Positions 1-50,095 are shown, counted from the stretch's first letter. The stretch is 64,000 nucleotides of DNA from an uncultured virus (IMG/VR IMGVR_UViG_3300037502_002629) (IMGVR_UViG_3300037502_002629), one strand, 5' to 3'. A program made the numbers and translations. The notes: generated by a model from the sequence alone, not told the origin.

Positions 1-1
1 T

Positions 2-136
2 AGCATTTATGCTTTCGGACAATTTGGTGACTTGTTGTGCTTTAATGGGGCGGTTAATACCTGCCAGCAGATTAAGTTTTGTATTTGCTGTGGTATATTT
101 AACCTGCAATTTTGATAATGCAGTAGATTTTTTCAT
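2..136 (-). CDS. 5' part of a CDS running off the window start; possibly ParB-like/DGQHR-type N-terminal domain
   Basis: Own translation from ATG at 136: MKKSTALSKLQVKYTTANTKLNLLAGINRPIKAQQVTKLSESINA... with no stop. The NR-x-I...V-x-x-L-x-x-SI pattern resembles ParB-like N-termini. Same strand as neighbouring genes. Confidence 0.45.
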   Translation of the reverse strand, partial: MKKSTALSKLQVKYTTANTKLNLLAGINRPIKAQQVTKLSESINA

Positions 137-264
137 TTTGAATACCAGTGATTTAAATTTTATACTATTGATAATGTCAGTTATTATTGGTAACTTCTGA
201 GTATCTCATTCAGTTACACAGTTTGGTTAAGGGGGAGAGATTTTTTTGGTGCTACCTTTTTTTG

Positions 265-585
265 TCAGTGATTTACTTTATGACGTTTACTACGAATACA
301 TCCATGTAACAACATTCTTTTATTGATTTTGAGGATATGTTCTTTATCGCCTGGTATAACTGATGCGTATTCTTTTTTGAATACTGCACCAATAAGGCGG
401 TTTATAGCATAGCATATATCACTAAGTTCATCTTTGGATGGTTCACTAACAAATTCTTTAATCTCATCCCACAGGTGTACAAGCCCCTCCCTGATGGAGA
501 GAGGCTTGTAACATGGGCAGTACTTATGCATAATCTTCAGCGTTATAGGTATCAGTGGGGTCTTTGACATGATTGCTCCAATCAA
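265..585 (-). CDS. hypothetical protein, possible MazG-like NTP pyrophosphohydrolase
   Basis: ORF contains ExxE...ExxD (DEIKEF...DELSDICY), as in all-alpha NTP-PPases. True start may be downstream. Confidence 0.45.
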   Translation of the reverse strand: MIGAIMSKTPLIPITLKIMHKYCPCYKPLSIREGLVHLWDEIKEFVSEPSKDELSDICYAINRLIGAVFKKEYASVIPGDKEHILKINKRMLLHGCIRSKRHKVNH

Positions 586-1063
586 TGTACTGTACTACTG
601 TAGGGGAGACCACTGTAAATCCAGTGCGTAATATCATGTAGTAAATTCCATTAACATGGATTACATCACCTACGCAGGTACTACGCACGCCTAATTGATC
701 CCAGTGTGTACCCAGATCATTTTGCGCCATAGCGAATGCATCACTCAGGGAGTGAGCGGATACTGTACCTACCTTACTGTATTCATACACACCGCGCTCG
801 CAGTCATGATTAATTTCACCACCATAGGGGTGGTAAATATCATAATCTTCTAATGGATCAATAGCTTCATAGAAGTCGATCCAATAGCCATAGGAGGTGG
901 TTACCATAGCGTAGTATCCCTCGGGTACGATAAGGTCATGGAATTTCTCCTGAATAGCCTGCGGGTCTGTACATTCTACACCTTCGCATTGTTTAAGGAT
1001 ATGGTGCAGGGGGTGGTGGATATCTGATCTCACCTTACCGTAATCAACTAATCGTAATTTCAT
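524..1063 (-). CDS. YodL-like domain protein
   Basis: C-terminal RSTCVGDVIHVNGIYYMI...GF matches the RSxSVGDV...GF pattern of YodL-like domains. A/C-rich leader upstream. Confidence 0.55.
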   Translation of the reverse strand: MKLRLVDYGKVRSDIHHPLHHILKQCEGVECTDPQAIQEKFHDLIVPEGYYAMVTTSYGYWIDFYEAIDPLEDYDIYHPYGGEINHDCERGVYEYSKVGTVSAHSLSDAFAMAQNDLGTHWDQLGVRSTCVGDVIHVNGIYYMILRTGFTVVSPTVVQYIDWSNHVKDPTDTYNAEDYA

Positions 1064-1090
1064 GTGGTTTTTTTTTGTTGGTTTAACTGT

Positions 1091-1327
1091 TTAGAGTTCG
1101 GGATCTAATGAGAATTCATCTTCAAATGAGTCAACATGCTGATAGCCATATTGAAATGCAAACAAGTCAGATTGATAGACATGTATAGAACAGTCTTCAA
1201 CGAGTTGTTTATGGGCGATATAGCTTTCACGTTGTTCAAGGGTCCAACTAATTGGGAATTTCAGGTTTATCTGTTGGTGATAATCTGAGTTGTCAATAAC
1301 TGTGGCAGTGATTTTGAGGTGCTGCAT
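1091..1327 (-). CDS. hypothetical protein
   Basis: 78-aa ORF, co-oriented, AT-rich leader, acidic tail. Confidence 0.6.
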   Translation of the reverse strand: MQHLKITATVIDNSDYHQQINLKFPISWTLEQRESYIAHKQLVEDCSIHVYQSDLFAFQYGYQHVDSFEDEFSLDPEL

Positions 1328-1361
1328 ATTTCTTTAAGATTTAGTGTTATAATGCTATTGA

Positions 1362-1402
1362 AACAAGTAGCCCCCACGTCATTTGACGCAGGGGCGCTTG
1401 TT
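1362..1402 (-). terminator. intrinsic terminator-like hairpin
   Basis: AACAAGCGCCCCTGCGTCAAATGACGTGGGGGCTACTTGTT on the minus strand, just after the 1424 stop. Confidence 0.55.
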
Positions 1403-1423
1403 CACTGAAAAGCTATGAACCAT

Positions 1424-1618
1424 TTACGCTGAATACACTTCATCTGCTACTATTCCACTGATAGTGGAATTGAGCACAATCATAATCACCACGAATAATG
1501 GGTTATGCACTACTTCTGCATAATCCACCATGAATACAAAGCTGATGATAAGTGCGCTGATGAACGCTATGATTGTCCAACACAGCATAAAACCAAGAAT
1601 TGCTTTTAATGTTTTCAT
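1424..1618 (-). CDS. small two-TM membrane protein
   Basis: Two hydrophobic stretches. Likely start MKTLK at 1618. Confidence 0.65.
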   Translation of the reverse strand: MKTLKAILGFMLCWTIIAFISALIISFVFMVDYAEVVHNPLFVVIMIVLNSTISGIVADEVYSA

Positions 1619-1635
1619 TGTTAGTTTTTTAAGGG

Positions 1636-2052
1636 TTATATACACTGTTTGTCAATACTCACTAGTTTGTTGACTCTGTCTTCGATACGTACAGCGCGGA
1701 ATGGGCTATTAAGAAGCCATTCTTTACCATATGTATCCTTGAGGGCGGTGATCATGGGCAGTGGGCAAAATACTACATCCACTGCTTCGAGTTCATACAG
1801 AAAAGCATAACGTACAATAGCATCTTTGACTTCTTCGGTTAGTTCAAACTCCAGGCTGATGTCACCTTTATGATTAAGTTCTGTTTCTATGAACTCAATT
1901 TTGAGGGCATTAGCTGTGTCTGCATCGTGCGCGGGCAATACAGTTCCATCAGTAAACCTAAACTCGTGCGGGCTACTGAAGTTGGCTACTTTCTTACCAT
2001 TGGTGAGAGTAACGATTGGACTGAGGTCTGTTAGATAGGCTGTTTTGGTCAT
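1636..2052 (-). CDS. hypothetical protein
   Basis: 138-aa ORF with globular composition. Confidence 0.7.
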   Translation of the reverse strand: MTKTAYLTDLSPIVTLTNGKKVANFSSPHEFRFTDGTVLPAHDADTANALKIEFIETELNHKGDISLEFELTEEVKDAIVRYAFLYELEAVDVVFCPLPMITALKDTYGKEWLLNSPFRAVRIEDRVNKLVSIDKQCI

Positions 2053-2071
2053 ATGCTTGTTTAATTAATAT

Positions 2072-2174
2072 TGGTGGTCAAGGTTGGGCTCGAACCAACT
2101 TATTCGCTGTATCATCGGACGTTTACAGGATTTATCCATATTGCATCCCTACATCTGTAAGGACACACTTGACC
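2072..2174 (-). ncRNA. tRNA-like RNA (atypical or degenerate, possibly Tyr-derived)
   Basis: Acceptor stem GGTCAAG/CTTGACC, discriminator A and CCA. T-arm GTTGG-TTCGAGC-CCAAC. The 68-nt centre lacks a canonical D arm and anticodon arm but contains CTGTAAA. Confidence 0.65.
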
Positions 2175-2454
2175 AAAGAATGAACACCCAAGCCTACAAC
2201 AGTGTTCTGCCACGAGAGCATCATACGTTCATATGATCGCGGGTTTACGGGTATCTGACCTGACAGATATTAGTTCCCATTATACTGCACACCACGCGTC
2301 CGCGGTATAGCACAAGGTATACAAGACATTATAGCGATGATATATCGCGGGGCTTAGTCTTGCAAGTTGCGACCAGGTTTTGCCCACCCTGGCACAGCAG
2401 ATTAGATTTTTTCCATGATAATTGATTTTTAAGTGGCGGATAACAAGGACCTTT

Positions 2455-2562
2455 CTGCACTCAGTTGTAATTTCCAATTACATCAATCAGTATAATCTAT
2501 AACAGTACAAAGACTGAGATTAAATCTGTATCAGATTTCTGGCTTATTACAACTAAGTACAG
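2455..2562 (-). ncRNA. structured non-coding element
   Basis: 17-bp closing helix CTGTACTTAGTTGTAAT/ATTACAACTGAGTGCAG, with two G-U pairs on the minus strand, enclosing inner hairpins. Confidence 0.45.
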
Positions 2563-2570
2563 TATTTACA

Positions 2571-2798
2571 TTAATGAATGATGAGATAGTCTATACCTTC
2601 AGTTGAGGATTCTAAGTAAGGTTTCATGCACGCGGCGGGACACGTAAGGATCGCAACCTTATTAGGAAAGGCAACAATGACGCGGTAGCTGTCCCATTCA
2701 TTAAGCTTATACTTAGGAAACTCTCTAGGACCATATGCCCTGGCTTCCCATTCATCGAGATATTTAAGGTAGTTGCTTTTGATTAGTAGTGTGGTCAT
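2571..2798 (-). CDS. hypothetical protein
   Basis: 75-aa co-oriented ORF. Confidence 0.6.
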   Translation of the reverse strand: MTTLLIKSNYLKYLDEWEARAYGPREFPKYKLNEWDSYRVIVAFPNKVAILTCPAACMKPYLESSTEGIDYLIIH

Positions 2799-2823
2799 AT
2801 GTTATCTAGTGCCGCGTTTTTAG

Positions 2824-2839
2824 TGTTTCACGTGGAACA
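2824..2839. promoter_or_regulatory. parS: parS site (ParB/Spo0J binding)
   Basis: TGTTTCACGTGGAACA, reverse complement TGTTCCACGTGAAACA, matching the bacterial parS consensus TGTTNCACGTGAAACA. Intergenic. Confidence 0.8.
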
Positions 2840-2850
2840 ATTAAGTTGAA

Positions 2851-2885
2851 TGAAAGAGCGTGAGGGATGTAGACCCCTCACACTC
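2851..2885 (-). terminator. intrinsic terminator
   Basis: GAGTGTGAGGG-loop-CCCTCACGCTC followed by TTTCATT on the minus strand. Confidence 0.65.
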
Positions 2886-2925
2886 AATCACTTACAAGTT
2901 CAATCTCCTACTAAGTTAGTAGGGA

Positions 2926-3300
2926 TTACAGCGATGCATCACTCATGTCAATCGTTGGGCGAGCTACAGGTACAGATGCCACAGGAGTTTTAACTTCGTT
3001 AGCGAGAATTACTCGTTTGAGCTCGAAGTTTTCGTTGGTCATAGGTCTGTAAGCGTCTACAAGGACACTGCCCACCTTAGATTTACCTTTAACTAGCGTG
3101 ATTTGGTCACCATAGAACCTGGTGCTGTGGTACAATGGCATCTTACTCTCGCTATCTTCGCGGTAGTTAACACCCTGAGTAACAGCATAGTCTGCAAGTT
3201 CCTCTGGTGTACCTTCTACCACTTTGTACACGTACATGTCAATTGGTAATCCGTTCTTTGCAATCTTCGTGTACTGATTGCTACGTACTGCTTTAATCAT
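2926..3300 (-). CDS. hypothetical early protein
   Basis: 124-aa ORF with an A-rich leader, downstream of hairpin element 1. Confidence 0.75.
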   Translation of the reverse strand: MIKAVRSNQYTKIAKNGLPIDMYVYKVVEGTPEELADYAVTQGVNYREDSESKMPLYHSTRFYGDQITLVKGKSKVGSVLVDAYRPMTNENFELKRVILANEVKTPVASVPVARPTIDMSDASL

Positions 3301-3357
3301 TTTGTTTTTGTTTTTTATTGTTAGAATTAGTTGAATTATGACAATATGTATGTTACA

Positions 3358-3396
3358 ATAGGTGAAGAAACAAACCAGGCGAGCGCAGCGAGCCTG
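3358..3396 (-). promoter_or_regulatory. hairpin+box element 1 (putative vRNAP promoter)
   Basis: + strand: ATAGGTGAAG (3358-3367) and CAGG-CGAGCGCAGCGAG-CCTG (3376-3396). Confidence 0.6.
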
Positions 3397-3435
3397 TCTA
3401 CAGCTTGAAACTATTCTGATAGAACACTTGCACTG

Positions 3436-3566
3436 TATTAGAAAAGTACAAGCTTTTGCTTTGTTTTACCTTGAATCTTCTGCTTGAAGTAGCAAATTTC
3501 TCGGGAAAACACTTTACCTCAAGTTTGCAACTTGCTGATGTTCTAGAGACTTGTACTTTACTGATA
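3436..3566 (+). ncRNA. rod-like structured non-coding element
   Basis: Pairings 3436-3452/3550-3566 and 3487-3499/3521-3533. G-U pairs favour the + strand. Confidence 0.35.
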
Positions 3567-3610
3567 GAAAAATGCATGGGGAGAGGTATAAAACTCACCT
3601 CTCCCCTGCA
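3567..3610 (-). terminator. intrinsic terminator
   Basis: GGGGAGAGGT-loop-ACCTCTCCCC followed by ATGCATTTTTCT on the minus strand. Confidence 0.7.
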
Positions 3611-3617
3611 AGCTAAC

Positions 3618-3971
3618 TTACCATGAAAGCTCTGATTCGTAGTACTCGCGCTCGTCTACTTCGTGCTGATACTCAAGCTCGAGGTCATACGCGATAGGAT
3701 TCTTCATCCTGTTATACTTCGCGTTGAGCTTTTGTTGGGCATGTGCATGAAGTGCCTTAATGACACCTTGCACTACCCCGCGTGCAGTTTCACCTGTGCC
3801 CTGGTACAGAATCTCCCACTTGCCACTACTCAGGCGGTGGTAGCGAACGCTATCAGGCAACTGTTCAAAAGGAAAGTCGCGGTTTACGCGCAACTTGATA
3901 GTGGTTACTGTTACAGTACCCACTAGTACACTGTTAATGCCGTAGTTAATCTTGATGTTACTGTTAGCCAT
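3618..3971 (-). CDS. hypothetical early protein
   Basis: Likely start MANSNIK at 3971. Acidic C-terminus. Confidence 0.7.
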   Translation of the reverse strand: MANSNIKINYGINSVLVGTVTVTTIKLRVNRDFPFEQLPDSVRYHRLSSGKWEILYQGTGETARGVVQGVIKALHAHAQQKLNAKYNRMKNPIAYDLELEYQHEVDEREYYESELSW

Positions 3972-4075
3972 TGTTTTTGAGGGTTTTATGGTTAGTATAC
4001 ACTGATGATTCTTATTTGCATGCATAAACTTGAACTGACAAGTTGTAACTATTCAAGTTATACATGTGCGTGCTA

Positions 4076-4112
4076 ATAGGTGAAGGGACAAGCTGAAGCG
4101 AACGCAGTGAGC
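4076..4112 (-). promoter_or_regulatory. hairpin+box element 2
   Basis: ATAGGTGAAG (4076-4085) and G-CGAACGCAGTGAG-C (4098-4112); short outer stem. Confidence 0.55.
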
Positions 4113-4116
4113 GACC

Positions 4117-4156
4117 ATAGATGAAGATACAGCAGCGAGCGAACGCAGTGAGCTCG
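4117..4156 (-). promoter_or_regulatory. hairpin+box element 3
   Basis: ATAGATGAAG (4117-4126) and CGAG-CGAACGCAGTGAG-CTCG (4136-4156). Confidence 0.6.
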
Positions 4157-4169
4157 TCAGAGAGCGAGA

Positions 4170-4202
4170 GAGTGGGTAGAGACTAATTGTCCCTACCCAC
4201 TT
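4170..4202 (-). terminator. terminator-like hairpin
   Basis: AGTGGGTAG...CTACCCACT inverted repeat after the 4222 stop, with a pyrimidine tail. Confidence 0.55.
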
Positions 4203-4221
4203 CGCCATGAGGTGGCAGAGA

Positions 4222-4461
4222 CTAATCGTCGTCTCTTACCACCTCGAAGCCTCGCGTATCACCTATCACACGCATGCTTGCGTATGATATGTGACTGGTG
4301 CACCCGCAACCACAGTAGTCGCGGGTGATGTTGATGCTATCATCACTGCTATCAAAGTAACAGTGAGTGTCAACTGGCCCATTTTCGAGCCAGTTGATGA
4401 AAGCATTTGCATCCTCAACAGGGACGCTTCCCTGCTGAAGATAGTTTCTAAATTTTTCCAT
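4222..4461 (-). CDS. hypothetical early protein with CGCGC motif
   Basis: 79-aa ORF flanked by terminator hairpins. Confidence 0.65.
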   Translation of the reverse strand: MEKFRNYLQQGSVPVEDANAFINWLENGPVDTHCYFDSSDDSINITRDYCGCGCTSHISYASMRVIGDTRGFEVVRDDD

Positions 4462-4481
4462 GGTTCTTGTGCGTTACTGGT

Positions 4482-4518
4482 TAAAGAAAAGGGGGAGAGC
4501 GTTGTGCCCTCCCCCTTG
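4482..4518 (-). terminator. intrinsic terminator
   Basis: AAGGGGGAGGGC-loop-GCTCTCCCCCTT followed by TTCTTT. Confidence 0.7.
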
Positions 4519-4535
4519 TGAACCATGATGATGGC

Positions 4536-4931
4536 TTAGAGCCTAACGTCATCAGGGTCAACCGCGAGTTGTGGTCGCGGCGCAGTGGTTGTTACACCAC
4601 TGTTGCTTGCTTTGGCCGCACGAATTTGTGCGACCTCTGCGAGGGTTGGTCGATCCACAGGGTAGATCGCCAGCTGCCCTTTTTTGTTCAGGGTGGGCTC
4701 CCCTATCTCGCACTTCTCGCATATAGCGAGAGTCGTGCGAAAAATTAATAGACCCCTTTCGAGGTCTATTGTTACCAATGGAGGGAATGGCACTCCCCGC
4801 GCATCAACGCGAGGAGGCTTGCTCGCCTCATTGGTGTAAAATGAAAGTTGCTCGCTTGTGAGGTCAGCGAGCGCAACCTGGTATGACGCCATACCCGATA
4901 GCGTCAAACCAATGCGGTGCGCAATGGCCAT
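4536..4931 (-). CDS. hypothetical early protein
   Basis: Likely start MAIAHRIG at 4931, 11 nt downstream of the element-4 box. Confidence 0.7.
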   Translation of the reverse strand: MAIAHRIGLTLSGMASYQVALADLTSEQLSFYTNEASKPPRVDARGVPFPPLVTIDLERGLLIFRTTLAICEKCEIGEPTLNKKGQLAIYPVDRPTLAEVAQIRAAKASNSGVTTTAPRPQLAVDPDDVRL

Positions 4932-4942
4932 AGTGAATACAG

Positions 4943-4982
4943 ATAGATGAAGAAAAAGCATGAACGAGCGCAGCGAGTTCAT
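4943..4982 (-). promoter_or_regulatory. hairpin+box element 4
   Basis: ATAGATGAAG (4943-4952) and ATGAA-CGAGCGCAGCGAG-TTCAT (4960-4982). Confidence 0.6.
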
Positions 4983-4987
4983 AGAAT

Positions 4988-5022
4988 CCCACACACCACA
5001 GAATCCCTCTGCAGTGTGTGGG
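4988..5022 (-). terminator. terminator-like hairpin
   Basis: CCCACACAC...GTGTGTGGG inverted repeat just after the 5032 stop. Confidence 0.55.
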
Positions 5023-5031
5023 CGGATGGTC

Positions 5032-5154
5032 TCACGCGTTTATCAGCCTCATTTGGCTGATTGCGTGAGCGATCGCTGTCTTAATGCAGCGACCCACCCC
5101 GATGACCACTTGGCCATTTGGGGCGACCATCCTGACAGTCGTTAAGCTGTTCAT
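5032..5154 (-). CDS. 40-aa small protein (not in ORF track)
   Basis: MNSLTTVRMVAPNGQVVIGVGRCIKTAIAHAISQMRLINA. ATG lies 11 nt after the element-5 box; a hairpin follows the stop. Confidence 0.55.
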   Translation of the reverse strand: MNSLTTVRMVAPNGQVVIGVGRCIKTAIAHAISQMRLINA

Positions 5155-5165
5155 GGTGTATACAG

Positions 5166-5203
5166 ATAGATGAAGTCACACCCACACGAACGCAGTGAGT
5201 GTG
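5166..5203 (-). promoter_or_regulatory. hairpin+box element 5
   Basis: ATAGATGAAG (5166-5175) and CACA-CGAACGCAGTGAG-TGTG (5183-5203). Confidence 0.6.
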
Positions 5204-5290
5204 TAGCTTCAAGCAATGCAAGGGATTAGTTGCTTCCTCGATGTAGGTTATGAGGAAGCTCTTGCACTTGCATGCATTGCTGACTGATAC

Positions 5291-5329
5291 ATAGATGAAG
5301 AGACACGTCACACCGAACGCAGTGAGGTG
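5291..5329 (-). promoter_or_regulatory. hairpin+box element 6
   Basis: ATAGATGAAG (5291-5300) and CAC-CGAACGCAGTGAG-GTG (5311-5329). Confidence 0.6.
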
Positions 5330-5470
5330 AGAGCTAGCAGAGTCATTGATTATCTATTGGTTAAGAATTCTTTTTTGTTTGCTCCCTGGTTTTCAAAGCG
5401 CTAGCCAAAAGAGGTGGGGGTAGGCGGTAGAAATTTTGTTGGCGGGGATTGTTTCATTAGGTACCCCACA

Positions 5471-5543
5471 CATCCTCCAATATATCCACCAATATATCCT
5501 CTAACATGTGTTTCTAATATGTCTTTTAATGTATCCCTCTTAA
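5471..5543. repeat. degenerate ~12-bp tandem repeat
   Basis: cctccaatatat / ccaccaatatat / cctctaacatgtg / tttctaatatgt / cttttaatgtat / ccctcttaa. Confidence 0.5.
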
Positions 5544-5561
5544 AGTAATGAAAGGAAGAAA

Positions 5562-5594
5562 TTTGGAAAGTTTAAATTTATGTTTATATATTTG
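5562..5594 (+). promoter_or_regulatory. Bacteroidota housekeeping-type promoter
   Basis: TTTG (5562-5565), 21-nt spacer, TATATTTG (5587-5594), matching the -33 TTTG / -7 TAnnTTTG consensus. Confidence 0.7.
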
Positions 5595-5617
5595 TCCTAT
5601 AAACAAACTATCAGCAA

Positions 5618-5830
5618 ATGAAAAAGGCTAGTAAGTATAGTATAGGTAGTGTGTTCTACTTACCTACTATAAAGCAATATGTGATGGTGGTGACTCCTGT
5701 AGAGGCGGGGACTATAGTGCATGTAGTATCGGCGGGGGATTTAGATAAAACAATGAAGTATAATATTAGAACTAATTATTTAGAAACATGTCAGAAGAAC
5801 AAAAAGCTCAGCCCACGCGCGAGCAAATGA
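5618..5830 (+). CDS. hypothetical protein
   Basis: First ORF after the promoter. Confidence 0.55.
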   Translation: MKKASKYSIGSVFYLPTIKQYVMVVTPVEAGTIVHVVSAGDLDKTMKYNIRTNYLETCQKNKKLSPRASK

Positions 5831-6027
5831 TCCAGTGGTACAAAGATGAGATTGAGTTAGCATCACTCCGCGCTGAATTGGCAAAACTGCAACGGGATGC
5901 TACAGTATCAGAAGCAGAAAGAATTCAGGCCATTGGAGCTATTGCCCAAATGACCCAGGCGCCAGAAGAAGAAAATCCTAAACAAAGGAAATTAAAAAAA
6001 GAGACAGTAACAGAAGATGCAGATTAA
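5788..6027 (+). CDS. small coiled-coil protein
   Basis: 79 aa, helical heptad pattern. Confidence 0.7.
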   Translation: MSEEQKAQPTREQMIQWYKDEIELASLRAELAKLQRDATVSEAERIQAIGAIAQMTQAPEEENPKQRKLKKETVTEDAD

Positions 6028-6466
6028 CAAGGTAACAAGAAAAGTGAGGTTGGACTCTAGACTGGATGCTATAAAATATCAGCTCGTTACTGAGCTTATG
6101 TTTTTAAGAAAGCATCCTTTGATAGATACCGACCTCACTTATCTTGCCTTGCTCGTTGAGCTTGGGCCAATTCCTCTTAAAGAATTTTGCCACAAAGCAG
6201 TGCTGCATGTGTATGGTCCATCTGTAGTGACAGATGTTGAAAAACACCCTGTTAGAGTACAAACTGTACGTAATAGATTAGGTGTTATGGAAAAGCGGGG
6301 ACTCATTGTTAAGGAAGGAAAAGGTAAAAAGATCCTGCGCATTAACCCCAATATTCCTCTCACCAAAGACGGCGATATATTATTGGAATATAATTTCTTA
6401 TATATTGAGACCCAAGAAAACAAAAGAACTGATTCCACAGCTCGCGAAAGAGCTGGGACTTACTGA
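6017..6466 (+). CDS. putative winged-helix DNA-binding protein
   Basis: VQTVRNRLGVMEKRGLIVKEGKGKK resembles a recognition helix plus wing. Confidence 0.55.
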   Translation: MQINKVTRKVRLDSRLDAIKYQLVTELMFLRKHPLIDTDLTYLALLVELGPIPLKEFCHKAVLHVYGPSVVTDVEKHPVRVQTVRNRLGVMEKRGLIVKEGKGKKILRINPNIPLTKDGDILLEYNFLYIETQENKRTDSTARERAGTY

Positions 6467-6791
6467 GCAAGAGGTAAAATCTGTTATTGATTTGTACTGG
6501 GATCAGGTACGCAAAACACTCAGTTCACTTGAACATAATAGATTGTTCCTGCGTGGACTGGGTGTATTTTACATTAAGCCATGGGCGTTGGAAAAAAGAC
6601 TTAAAGCCAATGCCACTAAAGTAAGTGGATACATGGATAATCCATCCACCCATGGGCTTGATATGATGAATGAAATATTTAAAGAGAACATTAAACTTGA
6701 GGTAGTAAGAGAACGAGAGTTAGAAGAAAATCGCCAAAAGTTTAAAAAAAGAGATGAAAGACGTAATCAAAATCTGGAAGGAGAAGGGTAA
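6405..6791 (+). CDS. HU/IHF-like DNA-binding protein
   Basis: KELIPQLAKELGLTEQEVKSVIDLYWDQVRKTLS...LFLRGLGVF is an HU/IHF pattern. Likely TTG start at 6405. Confidence 0.7.
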   Translation: MRPKKTKELIPQLAKELGLTEQEVKSVIDLYWDQVRKTLSSLEHNRLFLRGLGVFYIKPWALEKRLKANATKVSGYMDNPSTHGLDMMNEIFKENIKLEVVRERELEENRQKFKKRDERRNQNLEGEG

Positions 6792-7131
6792 GATTCTGGA
6801 AGGTATTAAGAATAATATCTTCAGAAACGCTGATGTCGAACACATTGCAGCAGAGCGCATGAGTATATGCGAGACTTGCCCGTTTATTGATCTTACAGGT
6901 AGCACATGCATGGTTCCAGGTACACAACCCTGTTGTGGAAAATGTGGATGCTCTTTAGCACTCAAAACCAGGGCATTGTCAGCAGCCTGTGATGCTGGCA
7001 AATGGTTGGCTATTGTCTCTCACGAAGAACAAATTATTATTGATCGACATCTGGCAGAAATAGAAAAATCTACAACTGATGAAAATACTATTCGACCAGA
7101 TAACCCACACCTACAAGACAACAGAGAATGA
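6754..7131 (+). CDS. Cys-rich (Zn-binding) hypothetical protein
   Basis: RMSICETCP...CGKCGC...C...KW motif, common in phages. Confidence 0.7.
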   Translation: MKDVIKIWKEKGKILEGIKNNIFRNADVEHIAAERMSICETCPFIDLTGSTCMVPGTQPCCGKCGCSLALKTRALSAACDAGKWLAIVSHEEQIIIDRHLAEIEKSTTDENTIRPDNPHLQDNRE

Positions 7132-7897
7132 TGAATATATAAGTGTAACAAAATTACTGTCAAAATATAAACAGCCCTTTGATCAAATCACTGCTTCTGT
7201 TAAAGCATCACGCAATAAAAAAAGCAAGTGGTATGGAATGAAACCTGAAGAGATTGTCGAGGTCTGGAAAAAAGAATCAGAACGAAGTGTACAATTAGGG
7301 AATTGGTATCACAATCAACGAGAAGCTGATATACTGGAATGTAATTCTATTACCTACGATAATACATTATTGCCTGTATTTCCCTGTTCACACGATGAAA
7401 GCGGAAATAAAATTGCAATAGATCAAAAACTGGATGAAGGGGTATACCCAGAATTTTTACTGTACTTACCCTCAGCGGGTATAGCAGGGCAAAGTGACAG
7501 AATCACCATTGCCAATGGTAAAGTTGATATCCTCGACTATAAAACCAACAAGGAAATCAAAGCCAATTCTTTTAAGAATTACGAAGGTATTTCTCAAAAG
7601 ATGCTATATCCGCTGAATCATCTGGAGGACTGTAACCTGAATCATTACACCATTCAGCTTTCTATTTATATGTACATTGTCCTCAAACACAATCCCCAAT
7701 ACTCACCTGGGAAACTTACGCTGCATCATATCATTTTTCAAGAGGACTTTGATAAAGATCCATATGGTTATCCTATCTACCTTAAAGACAGCGATGGTAA
7801 CTTCATTATTAAAGAAGTTATTCCATACGAAGTACCTTATCTTAAGGATGAGGTTATACAATTAATCCAACACTATAAACTTACCCACCGTGATTAA
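7079..7897 (+). CDS. PD-(D/E)XK exonuclease (RecB/Cas4-like)
   Basis: ISVTKLL, GNWYH, AGQSD...ILDYKT and YTIQLSIY motifs. Confidence 0.85.
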   Translation: MKILFDQITHTYKTTENDEYISVTKLLSKYKQPFDQITASVKASRNKKSKWYGMKPEEIVEVWKKESERSVQLGNWYHNQREADILECNSITYDNTLLPVFPCSHDESGNKIAIDQKLDEGVYPEFLLYLPSAGIAGQSDRITIANGKVDILDYKTNKEIKANSFKNYEGISQKMLYPLNHLEDCNLNHYTIQLSIYMYIVLKHNPQYSPGKLTLHHIIFQEDFDKDPYGYPIYLKDSDGNFIIKEVIPYEVPYLKDEVIQLIQHYKLTHRD

Positions 7898-14900: not shown

Positions 14901-16529
14901 ATGGCTACACCAGTTTTAAACAATGGCCTATTCTTGCGTGATACGCAGTATCAAGCAAGTTCACATGTTGACAGTTACCATCTTGTCAATATGCTGCGGG
15001 GCACAGAACCGATGGATATGGGTCCAGTTGACCTTTGGGCAATGGCTCAAAAAGTAGAAATGCCGCTCTATCAGATGGCATCATTTGGAGGTAAAAACAC
15101 TATTCTTGTAGACAATCCACGCGGTGAATACAAGTGGCAAACTCCTGTAGTTCAAGATCTTCCATATATTGTGGAAAATCTGGAGACCTCAGAAGGTGGC
15201 GTAGGAGCAGACGGTGTAACTTTTAAAATCAAACTCAACAAGCGTATTTTCGGTCATGGTGATATCATCACCTACGATAAGTACAATGGTATGGAACTTT
15301 ACATCACAGCGGATGATATCATCCCTGCTGGTGACGGTTTCATCTATACTGTACAGTTGGTGAACAATGATAACACAGCTTCATTGTCATCTTCGTACAT
15401 GGAGCCAGGAACTAAATACTTCAGAAAAGGTTCTGCTCGCGGTGAATACGGTGAGCGTTTTTCTGATATTATGGTTCAAACTGGTTTTCGTGAGTACTAC
15501 AACTACGTAGGTGGTGCTGAAGCTCACGTGCACTATTCTATCTCTTCTCGCGCAGAGTTGATGATGAAAGGTGGCTTGAATGCTGATGGAACAATCCCTG
15601 TGACTGAGATCTGGCGTATGTTTGACAAGCAAGCTGACCCTTCTATTACCAGTCTTGAAACAATGGTTTCCAAGATGGGTAAGGAGTATGTAAAGCGTGC
15701 ATATGACAATGGTACACTCACTCGTTCCTTTGTTACAGCACTTGAAGCTGCCCACCTTACTAAAGTAGCTACAGACATCGAAACCTACTTGATGTGGGGA
15801 CAAGGTGGACGCATTAAGCAAGATGGTCCAGATGATATCCGCCTTTCTGTGGGTCTGTGGCGTCAGCTTGACAATGCTTATAAGCGTATCTACAACAAAG
15901 GCCAATTCTCTCTTGAATTGTTCCGCGCTGAGATCTTCAACTTCTACAATGGTAAGGTTGAGTTCAAAGGACCAGATCCTAATCGTCAGCTGATTGTTCA
16001 GACTGGTATGGGTGGTATGAAGATGGTGAACGAAGCTATCAAGCGTGAAGCCATTTCTGCTGGTCTTGTAATCAACGCTGGTAATGGAGGCAATGGTATT
16101 GGAGCGATTTCTGGAACTAATGCAATGGATCTGAACTTCGGATTTGCATTCACCAGCTACACTATTCCATTCCTGGCAAACGTGAAGTTTGTATTGAATC
16201 CTGCCTTTGACAACGTACATACCAATGACATTGAGAATCCGATGATCGATGGTTATCCGCTGTCTTCGTACAACTACATTATCTTTGATATCACTGATAA
16301 CACTAACGACAACATCTTCCTGCTCAAACTTAGCTGGGATAATCAGTTGAAGTGGTTCTATCAGAATGGTACCATGGATTACATGGGTCGTACGGGATTC
16401 CAATCCAATGGTCAGTTCAATGGTTATCGTGTATATATGACACAGACTATGCCTGCTATCTGGGTAAAAGATCCTACCAAAGTGTTGAAGATTGTAATGC
16501 GCAATCCGATCACAGGAGGCTCATTCTAA
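14901..16529 (+). CDS. major capsid protein
   Basis: 542 aa, crAss-like position, biased codon usage suggesting high expression, followed by a terminator. Confidence 0.85.
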   Translation: MATPVLNNGLFLRDTQYQASSHVDSYHLVNMLRGTEPMDMGPVDLWAMAQKVEMPLYQMASFGGKNTILVDNPRGEYKWQTPVVQDLPYIVENLETSEGGVGADGVTFKIKLNKRIFGHGDIITYDKYNGMELYITADDIIPAGDGFIYTVQLVNNDNTASLSSSYMEPGTKYFRKGSARGEYGERFSDIMVQTGFREYYNYVGGAEAHVHYSISSRAELMMKGGLNADGTIPVTEIWRMFDKQADPSITSLETMVSKMGKEYVKRAYDNGTLTRSFVTALEAAHLTKVATDIETYLMWGQGGRIKQDGPDDIRLSVGLWRQLDNAYKRIYNKGQFSLELFRAEIFNFYNGKVEFKGPDPNRQLIVQTGMGGMKMVNEAIKREAISAGLVINAGNGGNGIGAISGTNAMDLNFGFAFTSYTIPFLANVKFVLNPAFDNVHTNDIENPMIDGYPLSSYNYIIFDITDNTNDNIFLLKLSWDNQLKWFYQNGTMDYMGRTGFQSNGQFNGYRVYMTQTMPAIWVKDPTKVLKIVMRNPITGGSF

Positions 16530-45265: not shown

Positions 45266-48200
45266 ATGGCGGAAAATAAAAAGGATACAAATAATCTTAA
45301 TAGTGATAAATCCAATACCTACACTAAAGGTCTTACTAAGGATTATAATGACTCTTATGTTCCCGAAGGTGTTTGGATTAATGCTATAAACGCGGTCACT
45401 ACTTCCCATAAAGGGGACGCTGGAGTAATAGGCAATGAACCATCTAATATTTATTGTTTTACAGCACCCTATACAGTAATTGGGATAGTTCGCAGAGATA
45501 CAGATACTTGGGTTGTATTTTCAACAAATGATGTGCAATCAGAAATAGGTATTTTTAAAGAATCAGATTGTTCCTACACAAAAGTAATATCTGACAAATG
45601 CCTTGGTTTTAAACGCACAAATCTGATAACAGGTCATATACAATATAATTTCGACTGTACTTATTCTGTATTTTTTGCAGACGGTTTAAATCCTGATAGG
45701 ACAATCAATCTTGATAATGTACCTTATGAAATAACTGGTTACGATCTTACTAATCCTGATTGTCCTATTCCTATTTATTCAAGCTGTCTTGATTGCGAAA
45801 AAATCAGATTAAACTATTTAACTGATCCTCCCTGCTGTAATGTAAAAAAAGCAAAAGGAGCAGGATCGCTTTTGAATGGTTCATATCAGGTAGTTGTTGC
45901 TTACACAATTAATGCACAGCGCGTTACAAATTATTTTACACCAAGTAATATTGTAGGTCTTTGGGACCACGGTGGAATAGGTGGCGGTCTTGAAATAACC
46001 ATTACAAATCTGGATGTCAGATTCGAAGAGTATGAGCTGGTTATAATAAGCACTGTCAATAGTCAAACTACTGCCAGAAAACTGGGATATTATAACATCA
46101 ATCAAAATACAGTTTATGTAGATGCATATAACGAATCACTTCCCTCTGTTGATATTTCATTAATATCATTAGTCACACCTGTTTATGAAAAGTGTGATAA
46201 AATGTTTGTATTAAATGGGTATCTTCTTCGATCAGGAGTGTATTCTAAATATGATTTTAACTATCAACCTCTGGCCAATCAAATTACTACCTACTGGCAA
46301 GAAGTGCAATACCCAGCTGATTACTACTTTAAAGGGGGTACAAATACTTCTTACTTGCGTGACGAACAGTATTGTTTTTTTATTCGGTGGCTATACAACG
46401 ATGGTGATAAATCAGCAAGTTACCATATACCTGGTCGATCTGCCAATTCTACTGACTTTCAGATCAGAACTGGACCAGATGTTTTATTTGGAGATAATCT
46501 TGAATGGCAAGTTTATAATACAGCTACTGTAACTAATTCTAATGTAAATTCAGCTCTTGCAGATGGAGGTATTGTATTACGTGAAGGATTAATGGGATAC
46601 TGGGAATCAAGCGAAAGATATCCTGTAAACAGACCAGAGGTATGGGGCGATCTTTGTGGAGTACCTATACGACATCACAAATTTCCTGATAACGGTGTTA
46701 CACATATTCACAATCAGGGTGGAGATAAGATTAATATATTAGGTGTTAGATTTGATAACATCAGACACCCTGTAGACAATAACGGCAATCTTATTTCTAA
46801 CATCATAGGATACGAGGTACTCAGGGGATCGAGAGAGGGTAACAGAACAATCATTGCAAAAGGATTGCTTAATAATATGAGGATATATAAAAATCCTGAC
46901 GGTAAAGAAGTTCTGTATCAAAACTATCCATATAATTCACTAAAAGCTGATTATTTTCTTAGGCAGAGTTTAGCAAATGGGGGCGAATCACCTGATAATG
47001 ATGGTCAAGCGCTAACAGGTTACAAAAGAGATTATTATTCTTTCCATAGTCCTGATACAAATTTCAATAGACCATTTCTTAATATAAACGAAGTACGACT
47101 GTATACTAAGCAGTATGGTAGCACAGCAGGTCGATTTGATTATGTATATGGACATCCAAAACAAAAACTCATTACTAATGTTTCTTACTTAATAGCATTG
47201 TTCTTAGGTATAGGTATTAGTCTTAAAGCAGCCTTTGGTAATAGAAACATTGAAAAAACTGCAGATGATGTAACAGCTATGGCAGGCGCTGGCCTTATAG
47301 CATCATCCTATGGCCTTTTTGGTGTTAACGGAGGTGCAGTTGGTGCCCTAGCCTCTAGGTTAGGCCTAGCTCCAACCGCAATTTCATCTGGTAATTATGG
47401 TGGATATCTTGCTGGTACGACTAATGGTATACATGGCGGTAATTGGGGCGGTATACAGTTTCCTTCAGTTGTTGAAACAGGTGGTGATTTATCACGATTA
47501 AATTTTGGATCTCTTTTTCCTGGATCTATGACAAAACCTGGACGTGTTGCAGTCGAACTTGCCGACTATGCATTATATATAACAACTATTGCTTATTGGG
47601 CAGGATTAGGATTAGATGCTGCTTTAAATATAATCTATCAGCTCATTCCATTTACAAAATACGCTCTTCAATTTAATTCGCATGGCTTTTATGATAAATA
47701 TAAACCTATTGGTTTACAATATCCTAATACAATTGGACATGTAAGAAGAGAGCATGATTTGAGTTTGTATATTAATAATCAGCTACAGACATTTGATGCA
47801 ACATACAACATCAATAACCTATATAGGAATAACTATGTTGGTGTTAAAATCAAAGGTACTTTTCAGGATGTTTCAGCAGGGGAGCCAAGCATAGTAGATA
47901 ACTCACAAAAGAGGGTGAGGGATTCAAATGCTGTGTCTTTTAATAATCCTATAAATGGCACAGTAACTGCAACAACTTCTGCATATTATGCTGGATTAAA
48001 AGTGGACTATGTAAATCAATACGGGCAATTAAACGGAGTAGTGCAGATTCCAATACAACCTTGTTATGCCCCAACTTCTGCCAAACTGCCAGATAAAATT
48101 TATTCTTCTCCTACGCTATTTGGAGGAGACATCTACATTAATAGGTACACTGAAAAGAACCCATTTTTTTATTTTGTAGAGTGGTTGTATGATTTTCCAG

Positions 48201-50095
48201 ATGGTACTCCCTTTGATTACTCTCAATACTCGAATCAATTTTATCCACGCTATTGGGCAAATTTTGAAAAGTTTGATAGATCTGACATACAATCACCTGT
48301 GAGTTGGGGCGCTATAAAATCTTTTACAGGTGGCAAACTGTCGGATGCACTACTGGGTTGGACAAAAGCGGCTAGTGCATATCATCATTTAGATCGTAAT
48401 GTTAGTGCGACAAATAGTTTTATTGTAACCAGTGCGTGGTTTTATCTTTTTAACAATGGTGTAAGAGACTTTTTTGTAGAAAGCGAAGTAAATCTCGCAT
48501 TTAGAGATTATGGTGAAATTAACAGTGAAAGACACTATGATAAGTACAGTTATACAGACCTTAACGCGATGTTTAGATCTGACATTATTAAAAGTGGTAA
48601 TTATTATAAATACGATTACTCTCTTTCAGTAAGTAAGTTGCTAAATCAGTACAAAAGTTTTAGTGTGATTTTGCCGCGGTCATATGATCCAGCAGTAGCA
48701 GAAACATGCTATAGTTATTATCCTTCTACAGTTTACTATAGTTTACCACAACAATCAGAACAACAGCGAGATGCATGGCGCATTTATCTGGTTAATAACT
48801 ACAAAGACTTTGAGTTTGTAGTTTCAAGTATCAAGCCTATAAACAGAACTGGTGCAATCATATTGTTCCAGGATGCAGAACCAACCAGTATTACGGGTGT
48901 GGACCAACTTGAAACAGGGTTGGGCACTAAGATTACAATTGGTGATGGTGGATTATTTACGCAACCTTTTCAATCTTTAGTTAATGCAGATGATGAGTTT
49001 GAATATGGATCATGTCAAGACACCCGATCAGTAGTTAATACCCCATATGGTATGTTCTACATGAGTAGAGCAAATGGTAAAATCATGCAGTACATAGGGG
49101 GTCAACTTATTGACATAAGCATGAACGGAATGCGGTATTGGTTCATGGAACATCTTCCTTATGTGTTGACTACTCAATTTCCTAAGTTTGATTTAATAGA
49201 AAATACTGTTGTTGGCATTGGTTGTCAGGTTGTATATGATCCTCAGTATGAGATTGTATATTTCTGCAAACGAGATTTTAAAGCCATTGCTACAGTATTC
49301 TACGATGTAGAAGGGAAGTTCTGGTATATCCAAAGACAAAGTGGAACAGAAAAAATTGAGCTTGGTGATCCTAAGTATTTTGAAAACTGCTCATGGACAA
49401 TAAGTTATGATCCAAAAACTAAAATGTGGTTAAGCTTCCACGATTGGCATCCAAACTTTGTGCTGGGTATTAATGATCATTTCTATTCAATAAAAGATCA
49501 GACTTTCTGGAAGCATAATGACACATGTAATAGTTTTTGTAATTATTATGGTATTGATCATCCCTTTGAAGTAGAGTTTCCAGTTAACACGGGCAGTACT
49601 ATTACAACTATAAAAAATATAGAATATACTCTTGAGGTGCTTAATTACTCAACAGATTGCATTGATCCATACCATGTATTGGATGCTAATTTTGATTATG
49701 CAATGTTGTATAACACAGAACAAAATTCGGGGCTATTGAAGTTAAACCTAAAACCTTACAGTCCCGTCAAAATGCTAGAGTATCCTAAAATATTAGCTAA
49801 TCAGATTGAGATTTTGTATTCCAAAGAGGAGAACAAATACAGATTTAATCAATTTTGGGATTCCACTAAAGACCGCGGTGAGTTTACAGGTAATCAGTGG
49901 CGGATGTTTAATACAGAACAAAATGGATATCGTAAAGTATTAAATCCTACTTTTATAGATTATCTCAAGCCCCCGCTACAACGCAAAAAGTTCAGGCATT
50001 ATGGTAATCGTTTGATCCTGGGTAAAACTGTATCAAACAATCTGAAGTATAACCTTAAAGTAGTCAATACTAAAGAAACATTTAGTCCACGATGA
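45266..50095 (+). CDS. tail muzzle/stabilisation protein
   Basis: 1609 aa, beta-propeller-like; C-terminal WTISYDP...WLSFHDWHP. Precedes the cargo genes as in crAss-like phages. Confidence 0.75.
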   Translation: MAENKKDTNNLNSDKSNTYTKGLTKDYNDSYVPEGVWINAINAVTTSHKGDAGVIGNEPSNIYCFTAPYTVIGIVRRDTDTWVVFSTNDVQSEIGIFKESDCSYTKVISDKCLGFKRTNLITGHIQYNFDCTYSVFFADGLNPDRTINLDNVPYEITGYDLTNPDCPIPIYSSCLDCEKIRLNYLTDPPCCNVKKAKGAGSLLNGSYQVVVAYTINAQRVTNYFTPSNIVGLWDHGGIGGGLEITITNLDVRFEEYELVIISTVNSQTTARKLGYYNINQNTVYVDAYNESLPSVDISLISLVTPVYEKCDKMFVLNGYLLRSGVYSKYDFNYQPLANQITTYWQEVQYPADYYFKGGTNTSYLRDEQYCFFIRWLYNDGDKSASYHIPGRSANSTDFQIRTGPDVLFGDNLEWQVYNTATVTNSNVNSALADGGIVLREGLMGYWESSERYPVNRPEVWGDLCGVPIRHHKFPDNGVTHIHNQGGDKINILGVRFDNIRHPVDNNGNLISNIIGYEVLRGSREGNRTIIAKGLLNNMRIYKNPDGKEVLYQNYPYNSLKADYFLRQSLANGGESPDNDGQALTGYKRDYYSFHSPDTNFNRPFLNINEVRLYTKQYGSTAGRFDYVYGHPKQKLITNVSYLIALFLGIGISLKAAFGNRNIEKTADDVTAMAGAGLIASSYGLFGVNGGAVGALASRLGLAPTAISSGNYGGYLAGTTNGIHGGNWGGIQFPSVVETGGDLSRLNFGSLFPGSMTKPGRVAVELADYALYITTIAYWAGLGLDAALNIIYQLIPFTKYALQFNSHGFYDKYKPIGLQYPNTIGHVRREHDLSLYINNQLQTFDATYNINNLYRNNYVGVKIKGTFQDVSAGEPSIVDNSQKRVRDSNAVSFNNPINGTVTATTSAYYAGLKVDYVNQYGQLNGVVQIPIQPCYAPTSAKLPDKIYSSPTLFGGDIYINRYTEKNPFFYFVEWLYDFPDGTPFDYSQYSNQFYPRYWANFEKFDRSDIQSPVSWGAIKSFTGGKLSDALLGWTKAASAYHHLDRNVSATNSFIVTSAWFYLFNNGVRDFFVESEVNLAFRDYGEINSERHYDKYSYTDLNAMFRSDIIKSGNYYKYDYSLSVSKLLNQYKSFSVILPRSYDPAVAETCYSYYPSTVYYSLPQQSEQQRDAWRIYLVNNYKDFEFVVSSIKPINRTGAIILFQDAEPTSITGVDQLETGLGTKITIGDGGLFTQPFQSLVNADDEFEYGSCQDTRSVVNTPYGMFYMSRANGKIMQYIGGQLIDISMNGMRYWFMEHLPYVLTTQFPKFDLIENTVVGIGCQVVYDPQYEIVYFCKRDFKAIATVFYDVEGKFWYIQRQSGTEKIELGDPKYFENCSWTISYDPKTKMWLSFHDWHPNFVLGINDHFYSIKDQTFWKHNDTCNSFCNYYGIDHPFEVEFPVNTGSTITTIKNIEYTLEVLNYSTDCIDPYHVLDANFDYAMLYNTEQNSGLLKLNLKPYSPVKMLEYPKILANQIEILYSKEENKYRFNQFWDSTKDRGEFTGNQWRMFNTEQNGYRKVLNPTFIDYLKPPLQRKKFRHYGNRLILGKTVSNNLKYNLKVVNTKETFSPR

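Follow-up and report, generated by a model that had tools for sequence, protein, structure and literature searches.

A small hairpin element recurs six times near the left end of a 64,000-nucleotide stretch of DNA from an uncultured virus (IMG/VR IMGVR_UViG_3300037502_002629; the whole stretch is called the window below). Judging by their anatomy and by comparison with relatives, the six elements are probably promoters of some kind. In the explanation proposed here, which is given a probability of about one half, they are early promoters composed of a mini-hairpin on the template strand and a lineage-specific box, and the enzyme that reads them is likely a virion RNA polymerase (vRNAP) of the crAss type. 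The phage is a distant crAss-like one. Crassvirales PHROGs are hit by its terminase, portal and major head protein, the first of which is ~27% identical to its counterparts in crAss phages. Leftward small genes occupy the stretch between the window start and ~5400, and structural genes run rightward from 5618.

The elements and their family

Each element consists of the box ATAGRTGAAG, a short spacer and the core CGARCGCAGYGAG, and all six lie on the + strand (Table 1). The core is matched six times in the 64 kb, always on the + strand, against 0.05 matches expected, and none of 100 shuffles reaches six. The box is found exactly at the same six sites; with one mismatch allowed it has 11 matches against 10.75 expected, so it is not enriched alone and its significance comes from the fixed spacing of 11-13 nt to the core (12, 13, 13, 12, 11 and 13 nt in elements 1 to 6). 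The core contains ACGCAGT in four elements and GCGCAGC in the other two. Beyond it, 4, 1, 4, 5, 4 and 3 consecutive Watson-Crick outer pairs form in elements 1 to 6. The positions, the order of box, spacer and core, and the variable but paired outer stems given by the first-pass annotation of this DNA are thereby borne out.

The comparison covers 80 IMG/VR loci around relatives of the portal and 80 metagenome loci around relatives of the exonuclease encoded at 7079-7897, and it includes a complete 124-kb relative, G001, whose portal is 87% identical. A structure-aware regular expression was run on the window, G001 and 75 other IMG/VR loci, where it has 22 matches with 21 on the + strand, and then on the metagenome loci, where it has 10 on the + strand and none on the − strand. 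Two matches in G001, which are without the flanking features and one of which is on the − strand, were dropped as chance. The family thus comprises 30 copies from eight genomes (window 6, G001 5, L098 5, L008 4, L099 4, L007 3, L010 2, L100 1). All 30 share one orientation relative to portal or exonuclease, the non-random arrangement that the promoter proposal anticipated in relatives.

A covariance model of the family finds no further copy in the remaining 58 kb of the window and adds one weak match in L008 (E 0.08). In G001 the five copies fall inside 3 kb of the 124 kb, ~2-5 kb from the strand switch, so the expected confinement of the family to one small module is seen in both genomes. The wider scan of Crassvirales proposed by the first-pass annotation succeeded in part, since seven related genomes carry the family and the covariance model finds nothing outside the near clade in 87 + 80 sources. 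It also finds nothing in Leptolyngbya phage Lbo-JY46 or Cellulophaga phage phi17:2, an empty answer that carries no weight. The exact two-part pattern of box and core is present in 0 stretches across IMG/VR, and blastn of window 3300-5400 against named phages returns zero matches. A generic scan for C-GNA-G hairpins shows no enrichment, with 16 on the + strand versus 10 on the − strand in 75 IMG/VR loci and 11 versus 13 in 77 metagenome loci. Five more distant loci, scanned for direct repeats, reveal no comparable family. A different repeated motif, GGGTTGAAGGTT with flanks, is present at the far end of two loci whose portals are 66-67% identical (L027 30-432 and L022 81-394), and it may be the own early signal of those distant relatives.

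A mini-hairpin with conserved purine pairs

The stem consists of five core positions and 1-6 outer pairs, closed by a 3-nt loop. In the 30-copy alignment the paired share of cells is 81.4%; shuffles give 57.7 +/- 2.3 (0 of 500 as high) and slid controls at most 45.2%. RNAalifold recovers the same four core pairs unaided. Three pairs are unbroken in all 30 copies and swap by double changes: 6-20 (GC 16, AU 8, CG 5, UA 1), 7-19 (CG 18, UA 6, GC 4, AU 1, UG 1) and 10-16 (GC 22, AU 8). Columns 8-18 are G.A and columns 9-17 are A.G in 30/30 copies, while column 5-21 is Watson-Crick in 16 and A.G in 14, with no other state. The loop is G-N-A in 29 of the 30 copies, with all four bases at N (GCA 14, GAA 10, GGA 4, GTA 1; the remaining loop is GGC), and a C-G pair closes it in every copy. 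A real hairpin selected for its structure is supported by these aligned sequences, in agreement with the earlier proposal that structure rather than sequence is conserved.

The non-Watson-Crick positions also indicate a strand. At the three purine-pair positions, every one of the 74 such cells reads G.A or A.G on the + strand; the wobble pairs, six G.T versus four A.C, favour neither strand decisively. Read as sequence, the core CGAG-C-GNA-G-CGAG is one CGAG block capped by a GCGNAGC mini-hairpin. The CGAG block (C:G, sheared G:A, A:G, G:C) is a very stable DNA structure solved by nuclear magnetic resonance (PMC10085684; PMC-numbered sources are cited here from partial text), and the GCGNAGC mini-hairpin is likewise solved and very stable as DNA (PMC13037366). 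The closing pair of d(GCA) hairpins is the subject of a further paper, as its title states (PMC3201870). On the opposite strand the same positions would be pyrimidine-pyrimidine mismatches, so the fold belongs to the + strand, which is the template for the leftward genes, as had been proposed. From the purine-pair pattern, the working form is probably a template-strand DNA hairpin.

Placement relative to genes and terminators

The window and the near relative L099 share a recurring order of gene, terminator, element and next gene. Terminator-like sites number seven in the window against 2.6 expected, five of them on the − strand, and six in L099 against 2.2 expected, all on the − strand; in L099 a terminator precedes two of the elements by 22 and 32 nt. 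None of the six elements is among the seven terminator-like sites of the window. Elements 4 and 5 occupy the entire gap between the preceding hairpin and the ATG. Their boxes end 11 nt ahead of ATG 4931 and ATG 5154, at the distance first noticed in the sequence, with leaders CTGTATTCACT and CTGTATACACC. Across the family, a distance of 38-42 nt between loop centre and start codon is seen in 10 of 30 copies, which come from six genomes, and a short (T/C)AC-N-ATG context often follows. Transcription starting in or after the box would therefore produce very short leaders.

No Pfam or PHROG family matches any element-headed gene, and these genes are ORFans, open reading frames (ORFs) of that kind. 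Four of the headed-gene families recur at 30-50% identity in other genomes with the element still upstream (3-4 genomes). The description of the elements as intergenic depends on the gene calls: element 4 is inside the longest ORF (from GTG 4994), yet upstream of the likelier ATG 4931. Their assignment to minus-strand units agrees with their orientation and placement and leaves out one leftward gene, the 79-aa ORF of Table 1. Sigma-70-like matches in 2400-5800 number 6 against 6.7 expected, and Rfam gives one chance-level match only in 2500-6000, away from the elements.

A terminator-like hairpin with a T run at 4747-4770 (−) stands inside the 131-aa ORF; it could be an attenuator, or the ORF could really be two genes. 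The 87-nt stretch between elements 6 and 5 is a candidate small structured RNA; in phi14:2, abundant early non-coding RNAs arise from intergenic regions (phi14:2 study).

An exchangeable module

The window and L099 are 95% identical rightward from 5348 and 98% identical left of 2927, and between these points the whole element-headed array is swapped for other cassettes. The breakpoints fall just past the first element and where the last headed gene has its stop codon, and inside the module a single 60-nt terminator patch is common to both (window 4171-4230). The four L099 elements keep the hairpin core, with a T-A closing pair, a GAA loop and paired outer stems. Their box is AAGTAACGTTAGT, unrelated to ATAGRTGAAG, and L010 has a third box type. 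It is thus the hairpin core that the family retains, and the box varies with the lineage.

Table 1 Positions of the elements, the genes and terminators around them, and the right flank of the strand switch
Feature	Position	Strand	Description
Terminator-like hairpin	2856-2885	−	Closes unit 1; left edge of swappable module
124-aa ORFan	2926-3300	−	Headed by element 1; orthologues in G001, L008 and L098 keep an element 72-86 nt upstream (loop centre to ATG)
Swapped module (whole element-headed array)	2928-5347 (window), 56-2534 (L099)	−	Other cassettes in L099
Element 1	3358-3396	+	Box 3358-3367, 12-nt spacer, core CGAGCGCAGCGAG 3380-3392, outer stem CAGG/CCTG; heads gene 2926-3300
Terminator-like hairpin and T run	3578-3606	−	Closes units 3 and 2; ~180 nt before element 1
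117-aa ORFan	3618-3971	−	Headed by tandem elements 3 and 2; element-headed relatives in L098 and L100
Element 2	4076-4112	+	Box 4076-4085, core CGAACGCAGTGAG 4099-4111, outer stem G/C only; downstream one of tandem pair heading gene 3618-3971
Element 3	4117-4156	+	Box 4117-4126, core 4140-4152, outer stem CGAG/CTCG; upstream one of tandem pair
79-aa ORF	4222-4461	−	Within array, without element of its own
Terminator-like hairpin and T run	4489-4517	−	Closes unit 4
131-aa ORFan	4536-4931	−	Headed by element 4; relatives headed by elements in L007, L098 and G001
Element 4	4943-4982	+	Box 4943-4952, core CGAGCGCAGCGAG 4965-4977, outer stem ATGAA/TTCAT; loop centre 40 nt from ATG 4931
40-aa ORF	5032-5154	−	Headed by element 5; followed by hairpin 4989-5023 abutting element 4
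Element 5	5166-5203	+	Box 5166-5175, core 5187-5199, outer stem CACA/TGTG; loop centre 39 nt from ATG 5154
Candidate small structured RNA	5204-5290	−	87 nt between elements 6 and 5, no ORF of at least 30 aa; −28.6 kcal/mol, z −3.65, 0/200 shuffles as good; no Rfam match
Element 6	5291-5329	+	Box 5291-5300, core 5314-5326, outer stem CAC/GTG; most upstream; heads structured non-coding stretch
HU/IHF-like DNA-binding protein	6282-6791	+	Pfam Bac_DNA_binding, E 3e-6; just right of strand switch

A candidate polymerase in the clade

G001 encodes, at 56583-68231 (L092 16583 to L093 8231), a 3,882-aa ORF with DFDID at residue 2599. The ~270 residues around this motif match the 'putative RNAP catalytic subunit' of crAss002 and Carjivirus communis (E ~1e-13), which places a DFDID RNA polymerase (RNAP) in the clade. 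The protein is much longer than gp66 of phi14:2. It has no PHROG match and no PDB sequence match, and G001 has no PF00940 match, an absence that is weak since control genomes are also silent. The terminal repeat of G001 falls within the portal gene and therefore looks like an assembly overlap.

In phi14:2, the virion RNAP gp66 transcribes single-stranded or denatured DNA and hardly any double-stranded DNA, and the block opposite the structural genes is the early class, which rifampicin affects only moderately (phi14:2 study). An early timing of the units in the window is suggested by analogy. That the injected crAss-type vRNAP reads the elements is a reasonable supposition, about as likely as not.

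Proposed mechanism and its alternatives

According to the proposed explanation, the six elements would serve as promoters in a short series of early units, most with a single gene, with which the leftward block opens. The conserved determinant would be the + strand mini-hairpin, with its C-G pair, tandem sheared G.A/A.G pairs, two Watson-Crick pairs, G-N-A triloop and variable outer stem, and the lineage-specific box would stand 11-13 nt from it, towards the gene. If the entering DNA is underwound, the hairpin may extrude and be bound by a polymerase that prefers a single-stranded template, most likely the crAss-type vRNAP seen in G001. Transcription would start in or just after the box and yield mRNAs with very short leaders. 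A bolder form of this explanation is put forward tentatively, as less likely than not: the two-barrel vRNAP of the crAss type may have converged on the solution of phage N4, with the core as a universal polymerase signal and the box as a module-borne second signal (start region or regulator operator), so that the array could be exchanged as a self-sufficient module of 'first genes'.

Several findings weigh against this explanation. The window encodes no protein with DFDxD or DxDxD; its vRNAP homologue would start near 65 kb, past the window end, as placed by nothing but gene order and size in the relative, and no similarity links the final ORF of the window to the N-terminus of the 3,882-aa protein. 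The authors of the phi14:2 study report no common early motif, and the early module of that phage (1-41 kb) contains no template-strand C-GNA-G hairpin of at least 3 bp, so the hairpin is not a general rule for crAss-type virion RNAPs. The two-barrel vRNAP of P23-45 uses an AT-rich motif. Relatives at 50-68% protein identity have neither the family nor an excess of similar hairpins in the loci scanned. The unrelated L099 box means that either the shared polymerase does not read the box or the polymerase differs. Between element 1 and its gene there is one sigma-70-like match, a weak one. Nearest-neighbour DNA energies hardly separate the strands (means −3.5 and −3.2 kcal/mol); these models give register-shifted folds in L007 and L008, and energies are not used as evidence. 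Since energy models miss the G.A and GNA motifs, the strand argument rests on the published structures. Two differences from N4 count here as well: the central loop base is a purine in N4 (−11G; GGA/GAA loops) and C in 6/6 window copies, and 19-28 nt separate the loop centre from the box; in N4 the distance from loop centre to start site is 11 nt, −17..+1 is the only conserved part, and a second box is lacking. The first-pass proposal of vRNAP early promoters therefore stands in part: placement and orientation fit a promoter, and the identity of the enzyme is weakened by a vRNAP gene seen only in a relative, by phi14:2 and by the L099 box.

The main rival, which is judged unlikely, holds that the elements are promoter cassettes like PeSL and are read by the host RNAP, with the box and the AT-rich stretch behind it as the promoter and the hairpin as an accessory (an attenuator or insulator, a regulator site, or a recombination linker that shuffles ORFans). 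PeSL cassettes have the same architecture of a repeated stem-loop and promoter between small ORFans in a plastic region (PMC2839356), and the entire array is here exchanged between near-identical phages. AT-rich stretches such as TATATCTAC and TATCTGTAT come after the box and the hairpin is roughly at the −35 position, the match after element 1 weakly resembles a sigma-70 site, and lineage specificity of the box would be expected if a factor encoded in the module acted on it as operator or promoter. Five of the six elements, however, have no coinciding sigma-70-like match, the total being at chance, and the module has no Bacteroidota-type −7 motif (a form that may not be the host's). Evolution keeps the hairpin and not the box. 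The invariant purine mismatches would make a poor terminator in sense-strand RNA, none of the six copies is flagged as one, and canonical terminators are separate and upstream; a T-rich tail follows the hairpin in copies 1 and 4 only. Outer stems that differ in sequence within one genome yet still pair argue against a symmetric or sequence-specific operator in double-stranded DNA.

Other readings move the function from DNA to RNA, or from transcription to replication, and neither kind sits well with the strand asymmetry or with the link to start codons. That the element acts as RNA in the leftward transcripts, as a processing, stabilising or protein-binding hairpin with the box as translational leader, is improbable. 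Covariation alone cannot separate DNA from RNA, a translational operator would be at home at a fixed distance from the ATG, and T7 early mRNA is cut at intergenic hairpins; RNase III substrates, on the other hand, are far longer than this stem. In the sense strand, G.A/A.G becomes U.C/C.U, the extra A.G becomes C.U and the loop becomes U-N-C, none of which is a known stabilising motif. The terminators between units mean that most units need their own start, the box is pyrimidine-rich and not Shine-Dalgarno-like, and no Rfam family matches. Use of the fold in rightward (+) RNA, either antisense to the early genes or as nut-like antitermination sites for the late genes, is more improbable still. 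Tandem G.A pairs and GNA loops are stable in RNA too (with RNA parameters the + strand mean is −6.9 versus −5.4 kcal/mol), and the + strand order of box, spacer and hairpin recalls boxA-boxB. This reading meets a late block with its own candidate promoter (5562-5594), copies that track leftward gene starts, the absence of any T run after the hairpins on the + strand, and the fact that no + strand promoter-like site or gene explains transcription through 3300-5400. About as improbable as the sense-RNA function are signals for replication or recombination on single-stranded DNA (ssDNA), such as primase or primosome entry sites like G4 oric or ssiA, or recombinase targets, an alternative already raised by the first-pass annotation in the form of priming signals. 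Like mini-hairpins occur at the complementary-strand origins of G4, St-1 and alpha3 and in ssiA (PMC13037366), and the array adjoins a divergent intergenic region, a common location for origins. According to the first-pass annotation, the 13-mer is also present in the primosome-assembly region of ColE1/pBR322. Replication leaves unexplained the fixed short distance to the ATG, the orthologous genes downstream and the terminators before the elements. The priming alternative also fits poorly with four to six copies that share a strand, cluster in 2-3 kb and each go with a gene, and with the box found at fixed spacing beside nearly every copy.

Other features of the window

A candidate promoter of the late, rightward block is TTTG-N21-TATATTTG at 5562-5594 (+), 24 nt 5' of the first rightward gene. 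The TTTG...TATATTTG layout has the Bacteroidota-type −33/−7 promoter form. The pattern is not enriched in the window (3 matches versus 3.5 expected), and TAnnTTTG is absent from both strands of 1-5586, which is weak evidence for the proposed explanation. In the divergent intergenic region, CCAATATATCC stands in two tandem copies (5477-5487 and 5489-5499); it may serve to bind a protein or have to do with an origin.

At the start of the major head protein gene (14901-16529), positions 14933-14959 (+) form a hairpin of 12 pairs whose GCA loop has a closing C-G pair. Besides this one and the elements, the window has no strong C-GNA-G hairpin. A 1,609-aa virion protein (45266-50095) is 26% identical over 98% of its length to a hypothetical protein of Leptolyngbya phage Lbo-JY46, and its further matches are structural proteins in Cellulophaga phages phi17:2 and phi4:1 and in one epsilon crAss-like phage. 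Three of the large virion proteins of the window have no PDB sequence match.

Significance

Crassvirales are among the most abundant phages known, and they inject an RNA polymerase of their own. No paper was found, within the literature in open view (subscription papers and closed supplements lie outside it), that defines promoters of crAss virion RNAPs or describes such hairpins. The family is a well-delimited candidate of ~40 nt that is specific to one strand, and compensatory variants of it exist in nature. If the proposed explanation is true, two unrelated injected polymerases use one unusual DNA structure, which would be a general hint on how transcription is started on freshly entering DNA, and the element would be a handle for annotating the first-expressed genes (host takeover, anti-defence) in metagenomic crAss-like genomes. 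If the host RNAP reads the sites, they would still be a clear mobile regulatory cassette, similar to PeSL, outside the T4-type phages.

Comparison with known systems

The elements are not terminator-like, in contrast to intrinsic terminators. The PeSL of T4-type phages resemble them in combining a repeated stem-loop and a promoter between ORFans, in their plastic early region and in cassette exchange. PeSL carry strong sigma-70-like −35/−10 sequences, whereas no host-type consensus is seen here, and their Watson-Crick GGGG...CCCC terminator stem varies in position, whereas the hairpins of the window have fixed spacing, strand-specific purine mismatches and separate terminators. G4 oric and ssiA of RSF1010 share mini-hairpins on ssDNA that an initiating enzyme recognises (PMC13037366); they act in replication and have no tie to gene starts or terminators. 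The core matches the mini-hairpin and the CGAG block exactly, and these are structural motifs and not a functional class.

Among injected enzymes, gp66 of phi14:2 and gp96 of P23-45 are two-barrel RNAPs that transcribe the first genes, and gp66 prefers a single-stranded template; their early regions differ from the one in the window, with no common early motif or C-GNA-G hairpins in phi14:2 and an AT-rich motif in P23-45. The polymerase of the clade is likewise a two-barrel one of the crAss type (DFDID), unrelated to the T7-like single-subunit enzyme of N4, and the invariant tandem G.A block in the stem is a further difference from N4. The virion RNAP of N4 uses as promoters hairpins of the template strand that combine a 3-nt loop and a sheared G:A pair with the heptamer GCGGAGC, centred at −11 (PMC4496689, PMC13037366). 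The likeness proves closer than the first-pass annotation had claimed, in that GCGGAGC is also the heptamer of four of the five G001 copies. The N4 promoters lie at the end of the genome that enters first, and extrusion of their hairpins requires gyrase and SSB. N4 P1-P3, served by the injected gp50, and the elements described here share a small template-strand hairpin, with a stem of 5-7 bp in N4, upstream of early genes, a 3-nt G-N-A loop closed by C-G and a GC-rich heptamer; in both, the stem is kept by complementarity, the copies are few and fill a minor fraction of the genome, and the phage supplies an injected RNAP of its own, which in the present case is seen in a relative.

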